Shown: positions 2,794 through 40,058 of the stretch, piece after piece
Position numbering within the stretch: position 1 is the first letter of the stretch
Layout of the letters: each line of letters begins with the position of its first letter
From: a virus
Lineage: Duplodnaviria; Heunggongvirae; Uroviricota; Caudoviricetes
Reading direction: 5' to 3' (one strand)
IMG/VR virus record: IMGVR_UViG_2671180268_000014
DNA: 43,810 nucleotides
Position numbers and translations under genes: made by a program
Notes under the pieces: generated by a model
What the model was told of the DNA's origin: nothing
Database searches by the model: none
The model's input: the letters and a program-made list of their open reading frames with translations, nothing else

Positions 2794-5386
2794 TTGCATA
2801 TTCCTTAGCCCAGCGGGGCAGTGATAACGTCTTAATAGCTGGCCATTCATCGGTATTGAGGCAGTCAGCCAGGGTTCGCAGATTGCGGTGATATTCCAGC
2901 TGACCTGCCAGTTTTGCTTCTTCGCCCATCATGAAAATTTCAACCGGATAACGTCCGCATTCAATAGTTGTGCTGGCAACCAGAAAAACGAAAGTTGGCT
3001 GCACTCCAAACTGTGCTTCATAACCGTCACTGTAGAATGCATCCTGAACGTGATAGCGGTAGTCGTAATAAGCGGTTTTGAATCGTTGAATATCCGCCGT
3101 AGTTTTCACGTCCATGATCCAGTGAAATTCAGGGATAATTTTGTCCGGACGGCACCGACACAAAATTGCTGTTTCAGGATCTTCCCAGTAAATTGATGAT
3201 TCAGCGTGTCCGGCGCTTTCAACAAGCCATTGCCCCAGCGGCAAAGCCATAACGCTCTGATACATGAGTTCAATTTTCCGGCCTTCTTCGGCAGTGATAA
3301 CCGTTTTTCCTGTGCTTGCGCATTCCCTCAGAAACGCTTTCTCTTCTTCTTTTCCGGAGTTTGTCCGGCGGTTAAATTCAGGTGCTACGATAAAGCGGTT
3401 ACTGAATTCTTCCGGCTCAAGTACCCGGCAGTGGAAAGCGGTTCCTAAATCGAGCGTTTTTGTCTTTGTGGTGTCCACGGGGGCATTTTTACGCCACAAA
3501 TACAGTGCCGGAGTATCAGCAATGTCATCGAGCTGAGACTTACTGACACCGGGACCCGCGTGGTAATTCTCATTCGAAATTCCGTAATAAATACCTGGCT
3601 CTATGTCTTCTACGATTACGGGATCTGCGACTTCGCCAGTTTCATCACTGCAATCGCGATGCGGATCGCTGCCAGCATTCTCATTGTGCGGATGTTCAGC
3701 GCCTTCCATTTCCTCCGGATCATTTTCCTTAGCTTCAACCTGACTCTCTTCATCGAATGTTTCCTGGTATGTTGCGTCGCCCATCACCGCACCACAGTCA
3801 GGGCAGTTATCCCCGCCAGTCTGGCCGCAGGCATTGCAGGCTATTTCCGGTTCCTGTTGCACTACTGGCTCAGGTTGATTCATATCCGGGCTGGTTTTTT
3901 CCGTTTCTGGCTGGTTCTGGTACACACAATCGCGAGTCTGGATCCCCTTTACCCATTTCGGATCGTTCGGGTCGCTAATTCCGTCAACAAATTCACCACG
4001 TGATGCAGCAAGCAATTTATCGGCATCGACAGGATTTTTTGATGGAATGTTTTTCCGGGCTTCATGGAGTTCTGCCCGCAGTTCCTGATATTTCGCATCA
4101 ACAGAATTTACCTGTGACTGAGCATCCAGCGGCTGCGTGTCCTGATGATGTTCAGTTGCGTCCGGTTCCATTGTTTCAGCCTCTCCCTGTTCAACTGCCG
4201 TTGTTCCAGATGGTTGCGGTTTTTCTTCATCATCCTGTTTTCCTTCTTCTGTTACTCGCTGCGGCATCGGGGCAGAGGAGCGACCGCAGGCAATATCCAC
4301 GATTTCCGGATCAGGGTTGGCATGATCGGTTTCAGTCAGTACTTTGTTCAGATATTCAGTGACGTGCGCGGGGATGACCTCGATCCCAATTGGTGCTTCT
4401 TTTACGGACGCAACCACGATGGCGCGGGAATAATCCAGCCCGCCAGGCATGGTGATGAATTTGTCGCGGAAAACAGAAAAGGGCGGTTTATTTTCAGCGA
4501 TAATTTCCTCAATGCGTTTAGCGTGTGCCGGATGAAGGTTATAGATGTCCAGATCCATTGAACGGGCCAGTACGCCAGTGGCTACGTCCCGCGCCAGTGA
4601 CGTCAGATCGTGTACGAAACCTTCGCCGCGATCGGTGAGGTTTCCGCCGCCAGCATTAGCACCGGAAGCCGTGCGAGTGATGTGTGAAACACGATTACCC
4701 TTCATCCACTCTTTTGTCAGCAGTCCTCGATCGGTGTAGTCAGCGTTCAGGTATGCTTCGAAAAAAGCAGTTATCAGTCCCAGGTTTGAATTACCAGGAT
4801 TAGGGAAAACTTTGTCAGTGTCACGAACCAGTTTGTGGAGTTCGCGAATTTCCAGCGGGTCGAGCAGGCTGGTTTTGTGGGAAACAGCCAGGGCAGTAAC
4901 AGCCGGTAGTTCTTCAGCCCGAGCAATGTGTAATGCCTGGAGTCCGTCGCGTGAAACGTGCGTTACCGGTTTTTCGCTGCCGTGTTGAGCAAGCCAACGA
5001 ATGGGCAGTTCCTGGCCAGAAATTGGGAGTAGCATATTCTCCTCAATCTCAGTCATGTCTTCGCCGTTGACGTTGGTATTGCCTTGATAGTGAGCGTTGT
5101 CTGGTGCTGCTCCCGGTTTTAGTTCCCATGTCATGGAGTCTTTGCTGAGTTGATAGCGTTCACTCCAGGTAAAATCGATCTCACCTTCAGCGGGCAGGTC
5201 ATTAACGACAGGAAAATTCGTGGCAACAGCTTTAAAATAGCTGCTCAGTTTTTTACCTGACTTAACGATCAGGTAGTCCAGAGTGGCACAGGTCGATTCA
5301 AAATCGTTGCTTGCCCACAGGACGACGTCAGGTTCACCGGATGATTTTTTCGCTTTCCGTAACAGGAAGAGTGGTTTTGTGCTCAT
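2786..5386 (-). CDS. recE: Exodeoxyribonuclease VIII (RecE), full length 866 aa
   Basis: 866-aa ORF immediately upstream of recT, same strand; length and C-terminal nuclease region fit Rac RecE. Plus-strand ORFs inside it are antisense artefacts. Confidence 0.9.
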
Positions 5387-9795: not shown

Positions 9796-10226
9796 ATGAA
9801 AAATATTGCGACAGGCGACGTTCTTGAACGTATCCGCAGACTGGCCCCGTCACATGTAACCGCGCCATTCAAGACGGTAGCGGAGTGGCGCGAGTGGCAA
9901 CTTTCCGAAGGCCAGAAACGTTGTGAGGAGATCAACCGTCAGAATCGTCAGTTGCGGGTGGAAAAAATTCTGAATCGCTCTGGCATCCAGCCATTGCACC
10001 GCAAATGCTCGTTTTCGAATTACCAGGTGCAGAACGAAGCGCAGCGATACGCGTTGAGTCAGGCGAAATCCATCGCTGATGAACTGATGACCGGGTGTAC
10101 AAATTTTGCGTTCAGCGGAAAACCTGGTACCGGGAAGAACCACTTAGCGGCAGCTATCGGGAATCGCCTGCTGAAAGACGGTCAGACAGTGATTGTGGTT
10201 ACCGTGGCTGATGTTATGAGTGCCCT
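9796..10226 (+). CDS. DnaC-like AAA+ helicase loader (YdaV-like), 3' end lost in assembly gap
   Basis: Walker A GKPGTGKNHLAAAIG. The ORF runs into the N-run at 10227; the true stop is not observable. Confidence 0.7.
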
Positions 10227-10556
10227 NNNNNNNNNNNNNNNNNNNNNNNNNNNNNNNNNNNNNNNNNNNNNNNNNNNNNNNNNNNNNNNNNNNNNNNNNN
10301 NNNNNNNNNNNNNNNNNNNNNNNNNNNNNNNNNNNNNNNNNNNNNNNNNNNNNNNNNNNNNNNNNNNNNNNNNNNNNNNNNNNNNNNNNNNNNNNNNNNN
10401 NNNNNNNNNNNNNNNNNNNNNNNNNNNNNNNNNNNNNNNNNNNNNNNNNNNNNNNNNNNNNNNNNNNNNNNNNNNNNNNNNNNNNNNNNNNNNNNNNNNN
10501 NNNNNNNNNNNNNNNNNNNNNNNNNNNNNNNNNNNNNNNNNNNNNNNNNNNNNNNN
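10227..10556. other. Assembly gap (run of N)
   Basis: 330 consecutive N. The X-runs in ORF-track proteins are artefacts of translating it. Confidence 0.99.
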
Positions 10557-10580
10557 AATTTTTACCGGGAGGAAATTTTT

Positions 10581-11342
10581 ATGGAGACTGTTTTTGACGC
10601 ACTGAAAGCAATGGGAAAAGCCACATCCATAGAACTTGCTGCGCGACTTGATATCAGTCGTGAAGAAGTGCTGAACGAACTATGGGAACTGAAAAAAGCT
10701 GGTTTCGTTGATAAAAGCGCGTACACCTGGCGTGTGGCTGATAACAACGTTCAGCAGGAACAGCCAATGCAGGCAGAACTGCCGGAAGAAACCACCACGG
10801 CAACTGTAGTGAAAATCTCAGAGTGCGATTTAACCGCGACGATTGAACAACGCGGACCACAAACGGCGGATGAACTGGCTACGCTGTTCGGTACAACATC
10901 CCGCAAAGTTGCTTCAACGCTGGCAATGGCAATCAGCAAAGGACGCCTGATTCGCGTAAACCAGAACAGTAAATTTCGTTACTGCATGCCGGGCGATAAT
11001 TTACCAGCAGAGCCGAAAGCTGCATCGGTAGCGGAAACTGATGGTAAAGCCTTTCCTCAGCCAGCCGGTGTTGCGTTACCAGTACAGGAAGCGGCAACAC
11101 AGGAAGATATTAAAACAGAAACTGTGGCGGACATTGTGCAGTCGCTGCCATCGTTTACTGAAACGCAAGCGGATGACCTAGTTTTACCATCGCTGCATAT
11201 GGCAAACCGCGAACTGCGTCGGGCGAAAAATCATGTCCAGAAGTGGGAGCGAGTCTGCGCCGCGCTGCGGGAGCTGAACAAGCACCGGGATATTGTCCGA
11301 CAGATTGTCGATTCCTCCAGTCGTATTGTGTCGGAAAAGTGA
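10581..11342 (+). CDS. Hypothetical early protein, probably winged-helix (YdaW/DUF1627-like)
   Basis: ATG at 10581 with GGGAGG SD. N-terminal segment [30 protein letters not shown] is wHTH-like. Confidence 0.4.
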
Positions 11343-11774: not shown

Positions 11775-11930
11775 ACGTTACTAGATCAAAGAGCATTAGT
11801 TCATATGTAAATTGACATTTTTCTGGCACAGGGGAGAGCTAGCGTGGTTGTCCGCTTTGTGCCAATAGCGGACATTGCTGGCTCATGGTATGTTAGTTTA
11901 AGGAGGCAGGTTATGCCCTGTATTTCGCTG

Positions 11931-11939
11931 TGGTATAAT
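11931..11939 (+). promoter_or_regulatory. Extended -10 promoter element (TGgTATAAT) for the AT-rich cassette
   Basis: TGGTATAAT read directly at 11931-11939, about 34 nt upstream of the GTG at 11973, which has an AGGGAG SD at 11958-11963. No strong -35. Confidence 0.4.
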
Positions 11940-11972
11940 AGTTGCGCAATTGATACAAGGGAGCGTTACATC

Positions 11973-12935
11973 GTGAAAATTGTTTTCGAGGTTAATGGAA
12001 AGAAAGTTCCACTAAAATCTTTAAAATACATAAGCAAAAAAGATCAACTCGAAGTAATGAAAAACTGGTTCTTTGAAAACTTTGAAGATCCGGCAAATGC
12101 TTGTCCGTATGAAAGTAGAGAAGGTGGCTATGCTTACATATATGGCGGGCCGTATGATGCGAGCGAAGAACTACAATCCATCTTCGGTCAATATGTTAAA
12201 TCTGAGTATATTGAGGAATTAGTAGATGAATTACAAACACAATGTTTTGACTGGTCTGGAAACTCAAATAATATAGATGATTGGTACGATGATGATATCT
12301 ACGACGCTGTAACGTCTTCCGGTAATCCGTATTTAAAATTCATTGATAATATCGATAAAATAAAAAAACTTGCAAAAGATAAAACTGAACAACAGCAAAA
12401 AAACCACTTGCTTAGTTTGCTCTACACGAATGTTATTACAGCTTTGGAAACGCTTTATGTTGAGCTATTCATTAATTCTATAGAGAAAGATGATGTCTAC
12501 ATAGCCAATTGTATAGAAAAAGGTAAGACTGAATTTAAAGTAAGCAAAGATATTGCTGCGTTGCCTTTCAAGGGTGAACCCATCGAGAAAATTAGGGGAG
12601 AGCTAATCAGGTCAATCAAGGAACACTTGATCAGTGCAAGCTGGCATAGCACTAAAAAGGTAATCGACCGCTATGAAGCTACATTCGATATAAAAGTACA
12701 AAAAGACTGTCCGATAGAAGCTATTGAATTGGCAACCCTCAATCGAAATCACTTAGTGCATCGTGGTGGAAAGGATAAAGAAGGGAACCTCGTAGTGATT
12801 ACAGACCAGGATCTTGAAACGCTGATTGAAAATGCATCGAACCTGGCAATTATGCTCTACAACAGTTTAAATGTAGCAACGAATAAAACCACCATTTTGC
12901 AACCAGATGACAAACCGTTCATTCATGAATTTTAA
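11973..12935 (+). CDS. Cassette gene A: hypothetical protein with C-terminal Rx4H (HEPN-like) motif
   Basis: AT-rich ORF. GTG start with AGGGAG SD preferred; the six-frame ORF extends upstream to 11844. RNHLVH at 12744-12761 in a helical C-terminal region. No family recognised. Confidence 0.5.
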   Translation: MKIVFEVNGKKVPLKSLKYISKKDQLEVMKNWFFENFEDPANACPYESREGGYAYIYGGPYDASEELQSIFGQYVKSEYIEELVDELQTQCFDWSGNSNNIDDWYDDDIYDAVTSSGNPYLKFIDNIDKIKKLAKDKTEQQQKNHLLSLLYTNVITALETLYVELFINSIEKDDVYIANCIEKGKTEFKVSKDIAALPFKGEPIEKIRGELIRSIKEHLISASWHSTKKVIDRYEATFDIKVQKDCPIEAIELATLNRNHLVHRGGKDKEGNLVVITDQDLETLIENASNLAIMLYNSLNVATNKTTILQPDDKPFIHEF

Positions 12936-12950
12936 TAGCGCAGGTCATAC

Positions 12951-13952
12951 ATGGATATTCGCACACGAAAGACAAAATTTTTAGAGTCGTTAGATTCAAC
13001 TGAAGTGATACGCAAAGCAGTAAGTCTCGCTATAGATTGCATTATTGATAATCATAATAGTAATGAAGATACCCCCTTAGTTATTACCAGCTATGATGAT
13101 CTCTGTAGAATCCAGGTGCTAAATTATGTACAGGAGTTTTGCGAAGCTGCATTCCCTGATATGGATGAATATTACTTTAGTCCTAACATACTTCGCATCA
13201 ACGGCAAGACTAGTGAAGAAGCTTGTATTAACTTAATTAAACTCTTAAGAAGTACAAAAGGCATGCTATTCTGGTCCGATGCCCCATCGTGGTTCGCTAG
13301 CCTCCCCGACGGATTATTCCATGTTGTTAACATTGATCAAAAAATCGTTACTCGCGGCCTTAATAAGAAAAACTCTAAGCCGACAATAATCAATAAAGAT
13401 TACAGTGTAGATACACTACTATCAGAGCTATTTTTGAATGGCGCACACATGGAGCAACCCAACGTACACAACGTTTCTGAGGGAAACATGAAGTTCTATG
13501 ATGAATGCCATGCTGGATTAATCAGACCAATACCCGCTCCAATAGGCGCGTCATACGATGAAGAGATCACAATTAATTCTCCAGATTGGCAAAAGCTCGC
13601 GTGTGTAGCTTTACGCCGCTATCAGTCGAAGGAATGTCATGACGGAATGCAATGGGATACAACCGATCATGGTTGGACTGATGTAATCGCGTATCCATTC
13701 GTCGAAGAAATACAATCAATGGATAATAGTGGTTATCGACAATGTTTAGTTGGGCTGGTCACAATAAACAATTCAAATGCAAATTCTCCGTACCTATCTA
13801 CCGTTTGGATACATCCATTTTATCGCAGGAGAGGGTTATTAAGTAAGTTATGGCCAAAATTACAAGAGTTATATGGAAGTAACTTCGAAATTGAGCGACC
13901 TAATGAAAATATGAAAGCATTTCTGAAAAGTGCGAAACACGCAGATTACTAA
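12951..13952 (+). CDS. Cassette gene B: hypothetical protein with GNAT-like C-terminal motif
   Basis: AT-rich 333-aa ORF 15 nt downstream of gene A. C-terminus VWIHPFYRRRGLLSKLW resembles the GNAT motif A strand-turn-helix. Fold assignment is inference only. Confidence 0.5.
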   Translation: MDIRTRKTKFLESLDSTEVIRKAVSLAIDCIIDNHNSNEDTPLVITSYDDLCRIQVLNYVQEFCEAAFPDMDEYYFSPNILRINGKTSEEACINLIKLLRSTKGMLFWSDAPSWFASLPDGLFHVVNIDQKIVTRGLNKKNSKPTIINKDYSVDTLLSELFLNGAHMEQPNVHNVSEGNMKFYDECHAGLIRPIPAPIGASYDEEITINSPDWQKLACVALRRYQSKECHDGMQWDTTDHGWTDVIAYPFVEEIQSMDNSGYRQCLVGLVTINNSNANSPYLSTVWIHPFYRRRGLLSKLWPKLQELYGSNFEIERPNENMKAFLKSAKHADY

Positions 13953-14572
13953 TTTATGAATCAGTCTGTGGAGTTAGGGTTGGTGTGAACAAGTAGGGTA
14001 AGAGCCTCAACGTGATGCTATGCCGACCTGCTCCCTGAGAATTCACACAGAAGGCTGCTAGCAATGTCTGCAGATCGCTCAAAGCGGACTAAAATGTTGG
14101 CTTGTTTCTGACTTAGAGCATTTAAGGAAGTGCTGGTGGTGACTGGTTGTTGTGTTCCATTTCTACAGAATAAAATCACAGAAACTATACCCAATAGTTG
14201 TATTGAATCACTGACGAGACAGCCTCATATTTATCAGGACTGGTGTGCGTCTAATACAGGGGGTTGTCGTGCTGGTTCTCAAATGTGCGCTGGCTATTGC
14301 GGCTGTAATGGCAATTTATTGTCTTGCTGTTGTTCTTATGGAGCGGCTTTCTGATTGATTACATACTGGCTAGAAAAAAGGTGTTACCTTGGTTTATCTT
14401 TGTCCGGCAAGGTGCGCTCATTAATCTTAAGTAAATTTATTGCTCAAGTATTCAGATTACTTCTTATGGTTGAAGTCTCCTGTCAATGTAGAACCAATAT
14501 ATTTACAAAAATGAGACCCGTCGGGGATAGCCCTGCCGGGTCTGACTGTTAAAGCATTTTTAATATGATCAT

Positions 14573-14911
14573 CTATTTTTTGGTGCTATAGACTTTTTCG
14601 CCCGAAAAGTCTGGAGCGACCCAAAAGTTAATATTAAACTGAGCATCATCGCTTAGTTCAACACGGTGCCAGTATTGTGGTGGGCTTGTTGCAAAAGCGC
14701 CAGCATTAATGACTACTTTTATCTCCGGTTCAGTAGCATTCTCATCAGTAAAACCATAATATGTTACAGTGCCTTCCATTACGCACAACTGCCCAAAAAC
14801 ACCTGCTGCTGTATTATGATGTGTTAATAACGCTGAAGGTACGTTCTCTTTTGTGAAGAACGGAGTTGAGCGTTTGATTACCCAATCTTTAGGAATTCTC
14901 TTGTGTGTCAT
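14573..14911 (-). CDS. YeaR-like DUF1971 protein
   Basis: Start at internal ATG 14911 with GGAGG SD. Segments RSTPFF and FNINFWVAPDF resemble recalled E. coli YeaR (RSTPFW, FNIDFFVAPE). Confidence 0.55.
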   Translation of the reverse strand: MTHKRIPKDWVIKRSTPFFTKENVPSALLTHHNTAAGVFGQLCVMEGTVTYYGFTDENATEPEIKVVINAGAFATSPPQYWHRVELSDDAQFNINFWVAPDFSGEKVYSTKK

Positions 14912-15724
14912 AACCACCTCCTCCAAAACATGCATTAAAAATGCATCTTTTGGAGGGTTATGTCAAGCTGTTATGAAACACATAATTGATATGTTGATTA
15001 GAGGAGAAGATAGAATAAATATGGTTGTTTTTCGTATAACTATTTGTTTTACTTTTAGTTTATGCATTCTGTGTGTTAGGAATAAGTTATTAAAGTTTAA
15101 TCAAAAAATCTCGATGTAGTCCACATAGATTACTGTTACTGAACCTTATTGTGTGTATTAGTTGTGTTCTGAAATTTCAGCTTAATTATTTATGATGTAT
15201 TTTTTAACGATAAATATTTTCCCAGGATACCTTTACTGTGTATATAAATAAATTATATACGCATAAATAATGTAAAGGCGTCCTTTTAGATATATCTTAT
15301 CAAATGTTAATGACTTGAGTGGGAAATATGATTCCAGCAACTTATCATGTGGCTACTTTATAAAAATAATGCCCATATAAAACAACAAGCGAAAAGGATT
15401 ACGGATAAAAAAGGAGCGAGATGTGCGAACTTGTTATTTTCCATGTTTAACCACCTTAAATAATTGATGATGACGGGATGATTGCATCTGTAATGCTTTT
15501 ATTGAAATGTTATGATAAAAAAGAACTTTTGCATAACATTAAAATGTAATTTATCTAATCGTTTTTAATAATAAGTGTCGTATTTCTATCCTTGTACCAG
15601 CTATTTGATATGTAGTGTTTGTTCATGCTATGTGGGGCTTTACACCATAGCCAGTTTATTTATACTTTATTCGTCAGCCTGAACAACTGGCATCTGCTGC
15701 GCTGCGCCATCGAGAGATTGAGAA

Positions 15725-39233: not shown

Positions 39234-40058
39234 ATGACACAGACAGAATCAGCGATTCTGGCGCACGCCCGGCGATGTGCGCCAGCGGAGTCGTGCGGCT
39301 TCGTGGTGAGAACACCGGAGGGGGAAAGATATTTTCCCTGCGTGAATATTTCCGGTGAGCCGGAGGAGTATTTCCGNNNNNNNNNNNNNNNNNNNNNNNN
39401 NNNNNNNNNNNNNNNNNNNNNNNNNNNNNNNNNNNNNNNNNNNNNNNNNNNNNNNNNNNNNNNNNNNNNNNNNNNNNNNNNNNNNNNNNNNNNNNNNNNN
39501 NNNNNNNNNNNNNNNNNNNNNNNNNNNNNNNNNNNNNNNNNNNNNNNNNNNNNNNNNNNNNNNNNNNNNNNNNNNNNNNNNNNNNNNNNNNNNNNNNNNN
39601 NNNNNNNNNNNNNNNNNNNNNNNNNNNNNNNNNNNNNNNNNNNNNNNNNNNNNNNNNNNNNNNNNNNNNNNNNNNNNNNNNNNNNNNNNNNNNNNNNNNN
39701 NNNNCTGGCGGGAATTGAGATGCCAGATTTTCATCGTGAGGACGACTGGTGGCGTAATGGTCAGAATCTCTATCTGGATAATCTGGAGGCTACAGGGCTG
39801 TATCAGGTGCCGTTGTCAACGGCGCAGCCGGGCGATGTGCTGCTGTGCTGTTTTGGTTCATCGGTGCCGAATCATGCCGCCATTTACTGTGGTGACGGCG
39901 AGCTGCTGCACCATATTCCTGAACAACTGAGTAAACGAGAGAGGTACACCGACAAATGGCAGCGACGCACACACTCCCTCTGGCGTCACCGGGCATGGCA
40001 CGCATCTGCCTTTACGGGGATTTGCAGCGATTTGGCCGCCGCATCGACCTTCGTGTGA
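39234..40058 (+). CDS. K: Tail assembly protein K (lambda K-like), interrupted by assembly gap
   Basis: Both ends match recalled lambda K (N-terminus MTQTESAILAHARRCAPAESCGFVV; C-terminus ...VLLCCFGSSVPNHAAIYCGDGELLHHIPEQLSKRERY...). The N-run at 39377-39704 is longer than the roughly 100 nt expected to be missing, so the internal frame is not reliable. Confidence 0.8.
   Translation: MTQTESAILAHARRCAPAESCGFVVRTPEGERYFPCVNISGEPEEYFXXXXXXXXXXXXXXXXXXXXXXXXXXXXXXXXXXXXXXXXXXXXXXXXXXXXXXXXXXXXXXXXXXXXXXXXXXXXXXXXXXXXXXXXXXXXXXXXXXXXXXXXXXXXXXLAGIEMPDFHREDDWWRNGQNLYLDNLEATGLYQVPLSTAQPGDVLLCCFGSSVPNHAAIYCGDGELLHHIPEQLSKRERYTDKWQRRTHSLWRHRAWHASAFTGICSDLAAASTFV
39377..39704. other. Assembly gap (run of N) inside gene K
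   Basis: 328 consecutive N. Confidence 0.99.

Follow-up and report, generated by a model that had tools for sequence, protein, structure and literature searches.

Proteins that join the HEPN/RES N-terminal domain 1 (NTD1) to a HEPN domain of the MAE_18760/RiboL-PSP type were catalogued computationally, with KPK_1764 as an example (Anantharaman et al. 2013, Biol Direct 8:15). These HEPN proteins have the same two-domain architecture as the protein described here, possess a conserved Rx4-6H, and are predicted to be RNases of conflict systems. Throughout the HEPN superfamily, the Rx4-6H motif is located at the end of helix 3. In many HEPN families, helix 2 also contributes a conserved acidic residue close to the active site, and some families use a His derived from an insert (Anantharaman et al. 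2013).

DS-33 is a two-gene defense system with the working name 'GNAT' and is composed of WP_014639476.1 (DS-33A) and WP_000354965.1 (DS-33B). The system was reported in the DefensePredictor paper (Science 2026, PMC13092281), where it appears in the figures and supplementary tables and is not named in the main text. Tested in E. coli MG1655 from a low-copy plasmid and under its native promoter, it was scored as validated and replicated, and it is one of four validated systems with HEPN domains. Wild-type DS-33 gives 2-6 log protection against T7, T3, Bas67, and Bas26. The log10 values of the two replicates (Table S7) are 3.8/2.6 for T7, 3.3/2.4 for T3, 4.0/2.0 for Bas67, 5.0/5.9 for Bas26, and 0.8/0.1 for T5. 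With the HEPN gene deleted, protection is 0.1/-0.3, -0.5/0.0, 0.0/-0.2, 0.5/0.3, and 0.5/0.1 against the same phages in the same order, and the R258A mutant gives 0.8/0.5, -0.3/0.3, 0.5/0.0, 0.7/0.4, and 0.4/0.3. By HHpred, the authors related DS-33A to PD-T4-2 with a probability of 96.1% over 55% of the protein (PMC13092281).

The window analyzed here is a stretch of 43,810 nucleotides from a virus of the Caudoviricetes (IMG/VR record IMGVR_UViG_2671180268_000014), and it carries the two DS-33 proteins in the same order and with the same spacing. Gene A (11973..12935, plus strand) encodes a 320-aa protein made up of NTD1 followed by a RiboL-PSP-type HEPN domain. A string comparison with DS-33A of Table S8 (PMC13092281) found 320 of 320 residues identical, and the RefSeq accession WP_014639476.1 was traced to the supplementary tables of the same paper. 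Gene B (12951..13952, plus strand) encodes the 333-aa DS-33B and is identical to WP_000354965.1 at 332 of 333 positions. The sole difference is P289L, with Pro here and Leu in the published protein.

Two 'hypothetical proteins' of about 205 complete E. coli genomes are, in other words, a validated prophage-borne defense system. The feature has been described before: its assignment to HEPN and the need for R258 are in print (PMC13092281), and the architecture was catalogued in 2013. DS-33 in this window is not a new kind of system, and the remaining interest is its mechanism. The reading favored here, given a probability of roughly 85%, is that A is a stand-alone, two-domain anti-phage effector in which NTD1 precedes a RiboL-PSP-type HEPN domain with R258-x4-H263 as the active site. 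Under the same reading, A travels with its own promoter-like element and with B in a low-GC cargo unit at a variable site of a lambdoid prophage, and B is accessory.

The functional start of gene A, as read from the sequence, is GTG 11973. This codon was chosen because of its ribosome-binding site, the RefSeq annotation, the N-termini of homologues, and a TATAAT that lies inside the longer ORFs. The ribosome-binding site, AAGGGAG (11957..11963, plus strand), was read 9 nt upstream of the GTG. The RefSeq product WP_014639476.1 is 320 aa long with the same start, and homologues with 76-89% identity have N-termini that coincide with that of the GTG 11973 product. The same evidence rules out two longer ORFs, one from GTG 11844, the start used in the original prediction, and one from ATG 11913, which is implied by a 340-aa cluster and a PHROG profile.

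The TATAAT is part of a promoter-like extended -10 element, TGgTATAAT (11931..11939, plus strand), that was read 34 nt upstream of the start codon and within the mobile unit; it may serve as a promoter. The element has a poor -35 hexamer and was missed by a consensus scan. Across the region, the consensus promoter and terminator scan performed no better than on shuffles. The gene A product matches PHROG 17908 (E 6e-226), whose function is unassigned. It is not covered by any NCBIfam model, and no credible PADLOC model matches A, B, or the 49 homologues of A; DS-33 therefore post-dates those libraries.

The original prediction singled out an Rx4H motif at 12744-12761. These codons read CGA AAT CAC TTA GTG CAT and encode RNHLVH when translated in frame with the ORF whose last position is 12935; the surrounding sequence is ATLNRNHLVHRGG, as claimed. 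The motif holds, but its numbering as R301/H306, counted from 11844, does not. With the start at GTG 11973, the residues are R258 and H263. Together with the next Arg, the predicted catalytic segment R258-N-H-L-V-H263-R264 spans 12744..12764 (plus strand), a designation that draws on sequence, conservation, and the published R258A mutant.

The R258-H263 motif by itself is weak evidence. Any Rx4-6H is present in 29% of shuffles of the gene A product, and a second, non-conserved Rx4H (R213-H218) is found in the same protein, as might be seen if the motif had arisen by chance in a helical protein and had no function. The narrower pattern R[NDH]x3H is present in 1.8% of the shuffles. The flagged Rx4H is considered non-random because it is conserved across homologues. 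In an alignment of the gene A product with 49 homologous sequences (27-87% identity), R258, H263, and R264 are invariant, and so are E159 and W224-H225. Among 266 family proteins fetched, an Rx4H in the C-terminal half is missing in only four proteins of at least 260 aa, and these four have only the N-terminal domain in common with the gene A product. In nearly all fetched members, the motif is RHDIVHR, RNHLVHR, or RHDLVHR. A chance origin has practically no probability left, being refuted by this invariance down to 27% identity and by the loss of defense in the published R258A mutant; the canonical position of the motif in the HEPN fold argues against it as well.

That position comes from an AlphaFold2 model of the gene A product, built on the 49-sequence alignment and confident overall (mean pLDDT 87). 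The HEPN domain of the model covers residues ~119-308 (12327..12896, plus strand), with proposed helices H1 at 119-134, H2 at 140-170, H3 at 248-263, and H4 at 278-308, and an insert at 171-247. R258-H263 ends helix 248-263, and a loop then leads into the last helix, 278-308. The protein thus shows the conserved Rx4-6H that closes helix 3 of a HEPN fold, with a polar residue, N259, after the Arg. Structure prediction had been named as a check on the original prediction that the C-terminal half is a HEPN domain with this motif, and the canonical helix 3 end in the model bears the claim out, as do PF18735 matches among homologues. The invariant acidic residue E159 (12447..12449, plus strand) sits in helix 2, modeled at 140-170, in a context other than Ex3[KR]. 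The invariant pair W224-H225 is encoded at 12642..12647 (plus strand).

A fold comparison of the gene A model has Csx1, Csm6, LsoA, AbiA, and Las1 among the proteins listed. A Foldseek search of the whole model against the PDB returned nothing significant. The sole matches of the gene A alignment profile against PDB sequences, eL20 and SNAPIN, are weak and were discarded as spurious.

Family assignment of the HEPN domain is supported through homologues and fold, as the gene A product's own scores are below gathering. PF18735 (RiboL-PSP-HEPN, gathering score 28.4 bits) is matched by 31 of the 49 homologues at E<=0.01; the gene A product itself has no match to it at E<=1. A homologue that is 58% identical to the gene A product over its full length (P0061) scores 28.5 bits over residues 126-297, which include the motif, and is thereby above the gathering score. 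Five others (P0099, P0101, P0103, P0108, and P0113) score 29-39 bits. A profile search of the gene A family found 3623 representative clusters (50% identity) at E<=1e-3 and 843 at E<=1e-30, spread across many bacterial phyla, and the 150 best family clusters listed are mostly 270-330 aa long. The essential part of DS-33 is, on its predicted features, a stand-alone protein of the HEPN nuclease type from a family of ~3600 such clusters in many phyla.

The core of NTD1 is located at residues 26-92 (12048..12248, plus strand) and is defined by a PF18870 match and by conservation. PF18870 is the only Pfam match of the gene A product (E 1.9e-4, 22.2 bits, gathering score 27.4). It is matched by 46 of the 49 homologues at E<=0.01, with P0113 (29.6 bits) and P0117 (28.7 bits) above the gathering score. 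No other part of the protein is as conserved as this core, which has a mean majority-residue fraction of 0.67 vs 0.38-0.60 for the HEPN segments. Its invariant residues are P45, G58, G59, P60, and F71, and W94 is invariant just outside it. In P0117 (locus L083), NTD1 is fused to PIN; the domain is also known on HEPN, RES, and ABC ATPase proteins (Anantharaman et al. 2013, Biol Direct 8:15). Strong conservation and attachment to several effectors are easier to reconcile with a module for regulation or ligand binding that different proteins share than with a receptor that recognizes variable phage proteins.

A regulatory N-terminal half, as originally suggested, is plausible, and the region is a defined HEPN/RES-NTD1; the 'aromatic, acidic' segment to which the role was given is a different matter. 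WYDDDIYD is not in the N-terminal domain, which covers residues ~25-95. It occupies residues 104-111, a lower-confidence linker helix between the two domains.

The high conservation of NTD1 also raises the idea that the HEPN domain is not a nuclease, with R258 needed for ligand binding or folding and the effector activity located elsewhere, e.g., in NTD1. Some HEPN domains are non-catalytic binding modules, and the published motif mutant is R258A alone. Non-catalytic HEPN domains, however, typically lose Rx4-6H, whereas R258, H263, R264, and E159 are invariant in this family and a polar residue follows the Arg. The occurrence of NTD1 on HEPN, PIN, and RES proteins fits an adaptor or regulator and not an effector. 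A non-nuclease HEPN domain is accordingly considered very unlikely.

The nuclease reading agrees with the genetic data. The original prediction proposed an R301A variant as an experiment, and for phage defense its equivalent, R258A, has been published, with defense by the identical protein abolished (PMC13092281).

Genes A and B are 15 nt apart on the same strand and, with short flanks, make up a mobile two-gene unit (11914..13994, plus strand). It forms the low-GC cargo of a lambdoid prophage at a site whose content varies. GC content is 0.33-0.42 over the A-B segment vs ~0.50 in the flanks. Upstream of A are a DUF1376 replication-type gene, an ORF at 9796-10605 that is interrupted by an N run and reads as DnaC-like in translation, a DUF1627 gene, and a DUF977 gene. 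Downstream of B are a DUF1971 gene (minus strand), an AT-rich gap, and DUF1367, YbcO, and DUF1133 genes, the last with a weak match to antiterminator Q (PF06530) just at the cut-off. The region is the accessory region of a lambdoid prophage, after the replication and DUF977 genes. Phages Tritos, Evi, and 204576 match over only the first ~97 query bases, and in Tritos and Evi the DUF977 gene is followed by different cargo, which marks the site as a variable hotspot.

The whole cassette is found in 205 complete E. coli genomes, and 902 match at least part of the query. Outside E. coli, 11850-14026 is 97% identical in nucleotide sequence to a Serratia locus (L007) in an unrelated genomic context, where A and B are in a CP4-like island. 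The unit at 11914-13994 has 86% nucleotide identity to Aeromonas loci (L089-L092), where it is beside Thoeris genes in a defense island. A and B thus move as a unit among three unrelated kinds of mobile element, which is unexpected if B is irrelevant to A.

Gene B has an N-terminal alpha/beta region and, at its C-terminus (~residues 205-330, nt 13563-13940), the alpha/beta fold of a GNAT acetyltransferase. The protein scores 19.9 bits against PF00583 (gathering score 20.7), which is matched by 11 of 34 homologues. Acetyl-CoA motif A in B is R292-R-R-G295-L-L, with Leu last (consensus R/Q-x-x-G-x-G/A). Codon P289 (13815..13817, plus strand), where the tested DS-33B has Leu, falls where the segment presumed to bind acetyl-CoA, WIHPFYRRRG, begins. 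P289 is invariant in the 34 homologues, and H288 and R292 are as well.

The common transfer of A and B, together with their spacing on one strand, speaks for a functional pair in which B restrains or tunes A in the manner of an antitoxin or attenuator. As MntA controls HepT covalently, B might by analogy act through acetylation of A or of the RNA/tRNA that A targets. With the GNAT gene deleted, the published protection (log10, two replicates) is 4.8/4.3 against T7, 3.3/3.3 against T3, 4.0/3.3 against Bas67, 5.0/4.9 against Bas26, and 1.7/0.5 against T5 (Table S7, PMC13092281). Protection is equal or stronger in 9 of 10 comparisons with the wild type, e.g., 4.8/4.3 vs 3.8/2.6 for T7, 3.3 vs 2.0 in one Bas67 replicate, and 1.7/0.5 vs 0.8/0.1 for T5. 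This is a hint that B dampens A, although altered expression from the deletion construct could also account for the stronger defense. Since the tested allele carries P289L at an invariant position, the dispensability of B was seen with a possibly impaired allele, and the full effect of B may be missed.

Other observations weigh against the pair. The strain without B is viable and defended, so A is not lethal in its absence. When all ORFs up to 3 kb from A were clustered for 62 full-length loci, no neighbor family recurred beyond three of them. In Aeromonas taiwanensis, Yersinia, Pantoea, and distant phyla, A stands by itself, and B is absent beside relatives of A at <=76% identity (54-76% in Aeromonas taiwanensis, Yersinia, Pantoea, and others). 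When B was searched by tblastn against 85 loci with relatives of A, it was found only beside near-identical A in E. coli and Serratia; the Aeromonas loci, fetched later, also carry the A and B pair. B also occurs without A in a Mu-like prophage, a Shewanella locus, and a defense island with TerB/BrxC-like, helicase, Mrr, and HEPN_Toprim_N genes. Similarity of the Citrobacter/Enterobacter-type loci (L093-L096) to the window starts at 12740, and B there follows a mere 3' remnant of A, its last ~195 nt.

B as an obligatory partner is ruled out by the tblastn distribution and by the published B deletion, which keeps defense. The looser idea of a functional pair is judged unlikely, though it deserves some weight. 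The published deletion shows that A needs no partner for defense, and the 62 loci show that its family has no conserved one.

The gene A product ends in ...PDDKPFIHEF. Residues 309-320 form a disordered acidic tail that ends in Phe, LQPDDKPFIHEF (12897..12932, plus strand), with pLDDT <50 in the model. A C-terminal Phe is present in 143 of 243 full-length family members (59%), against a background Phe frequency of 4.8%. Of the members that end in Phe, 89 have E or D at position -2 and 85 have one at position -4. Certain alphaproteobacterial proteins share NTD1 only, which is followed by a GIGHNNPP motif and a hydrophobic C-terminus, and 7 of 10 end in PF or LF. The acidic Phe tail in 59% of the family and P289L in the tested GNAT allele are new details of the system.

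Bacterial SSB and T7 gp2.5 both bind their partners through an acidic C-terminal tip with Phe as its last residue; for T7 SSB, the DARNA literature names this C-terminal residue as F232. By analogy, NTD1 and the tail ([DE][DE]x[DE]F-COOH) might form a single switch. An SSB-like tail could dock on NTD1 and keep the nuclease off, or could mimic an SSB tail and in this way engage phage replication proteins, and the HEPN domain would be freed when a T7-like replisome assembles. Such a switch is quite doubtful, and any connection of the tail and NTD1 with the fact that DS-33 prefers T7-like phages is speculative.

A stand-alone HEPN effector would act through a short series of steps, modeled on related systems. 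By analogy to HepT, HepS, DARNA/PD-T7-3, ApeA, and RnlA, DS-33A would be kept inactive until infection, given that it needs no antitoxin. Its HEPN domains would dimerize, and two Rx4H motifs would come together as a composite site. Infection would activate the protein, with RNA cut in the absence of a metal cofactor; the target would most likely be tRNA anticodon loops or mRNA. Phage production would then be stopped, probably by abortive infection. NTD1, possibly with the acidic Phe tail, is the likely regulatory or sensing module, and B is accessory and not required for defense.

Several described systems share parts of this arrangement. PD-T4-2B (Vassallo et al. 2022) has a PF18735 RiboL-PSP-HEPN domain in a validated E. 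coli defense system, like DS-33A. In PD-T4-2, the HEPN protein is paired with DUF262, a ParB-like NTPase, whereas DS-33A has NTD1 and no such partner. The PADLOC model of PD-T4-2 matches neither A nor its 49 homologues, and the neighbors of A are DUF977 and GNAT genes, which sets the locus apart from PD-T4-2. Operons of ParA/Soj with MAE_18760 and of ParB with RiboL-PSP-HEPN are also described (Anantharaman et al. 2013), and neither partner is beside gene A.

HepT is a minimal HEPN toxin that is neutralized by an adjacent MNT nucleotidyltransferase, whereas A is tolerated without any partner. No adjacent MNT nucleotidyltransferase was found next to A in this locus or in 62 related loci, so the locus is not a HepT/MntA system. 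The GNAT toxins TacT, AtaT, and ItaT are small proteins with an adjacent ribbon-helix-helix antitoxin. B is distinct from this group, as it is 333 aa long with a large extra N-terminal region and no small antitoxin gene was found next to it.

DARNA (PD-T7-3) and ApeA are single polypeptides in which HEPN is joined to a non-catalytic sensing domain. Their active site is occluded at rest, and tRNA anticodons are cleaved upon infection. DARNA is active against T7, as is DS-33, and forms a dodecamer that is activated by SSB-bound ssDNA. Both differ from DS-33A in domain order and in their sensing domains.

Like DS-33A, HepS, from the Salmonella prophage Gifsy-1 (Nature 2026, PMC13043305), is a single HEPN protein that has neither partner nor antitoxin, and its gene lies past the replication genes in a lambdoid prophage's accessory region. 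HepS is inactive by default, and its defense needs Rx4H (PMC13043305). Compared by description, HepS has <250 aa without extra domains and forms a tetramer triggered by the tail-tip protein J, while A has 320 aa and NTD1; by size and domain content, A is not a HepS protein. A probably works like the single-protein HEPN defense nucleases, and among these HepS is, by analogy, the best working model for the action of DS-33A.

[quoted passage not shown] Within it lies an invariant Trp-His pair, W224-H225 (window 12642-12647), which may be an extra active-site or RNA-binding element. The insert also carries a second Rx4H motif, RSIKEH, spanning R213-H218 (window 12609-12626). This motif is probably fortuitous because family members do not conserve R213.

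Gene B (DS-33B) encodes a proline at position 289 (codon at window 13815-13817), a residue that is invariant among its homologues (34/34) and is located at the presumed acetyl-CoA-binding segment. By contrast with the window, leucine occupies this position in the DS-33B allele used for the experiments of the DefensePredictor paper (PMC13092281). In four Citrobacter/Enterobacter-type loci (L093-L096), only the final ~195 nt of gene A is found upstream of gene B. This piece, at ~4790-5000 of the locus, is equivalent to window 12740-12935. Similarity to the window begins a few bases from the R258 codon of the HEPN motif; the piece is thus a remnant of gene A and not an intact gene.

In Aeromonas (loci L089-L092), the A-B pair is located within a defence island, where its neighbours are a gene for a TIR-domain protein and two Thoeris-like genes (SIR2/STALD and ThsB-TIR). 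In one of these genomes, a class 1 integron-like resistance region also adjoins the A-B pair.

The N-terminal domain of A, NTD1, is found on other proteins as well. In alphaproteobacterial loci (within L066-L085), NTD1 occurs without the rest of A and is joined to different C-terminal parts. One such partner possesses a GIGHNNPP motif and a hydrophobic C-terminus whose last residues are mostly PF. The protein P0117 of locus L083 has the inverted domain order: it begins with a PIN_8 nuclease, and NTD1 forms its C-terminal part.

Directly downstream of the A-B cassette is a DUF1971-family gene on the opposite (-) strand (window 14573-14935). It is followed, ahead of the DUF1367 gene, by a strongly AT-rich stretch (window 14900-15700, GC ~0.28) that lacks long ORFs. 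Both may be additional cargo of the A-B hotspot. The site just 3' of the DUF977 gene holds unrelated cargo in other lambdoid phages, e.g., an oppositely oriented gene for a hypothetical protein of 444 aa in phage Tritos (L097), and a transcriptional regulator with a putative acetyltransferase in phage Evi (L098). Elsewhere, the window has two masked or unresolved N runs (10227-10556 and 39377-39704), the first of which breaks up the ORF at 9796-10605.

Gene A ends in an acidic tail that is predicted to be disordered and has Phe as the last residue (residues 309-320, window 12897-12932). A disordered, acidic, Phe-ended tail is characteristic of the majority of the A family (P0001-P0120 and P0187-P0332). 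The C-terminal residue is F in 143 of 243 members, and E/D is common at positions -2 and -4. The C-terminal tips of SSB proteins are similar to this acidic Phe tail.
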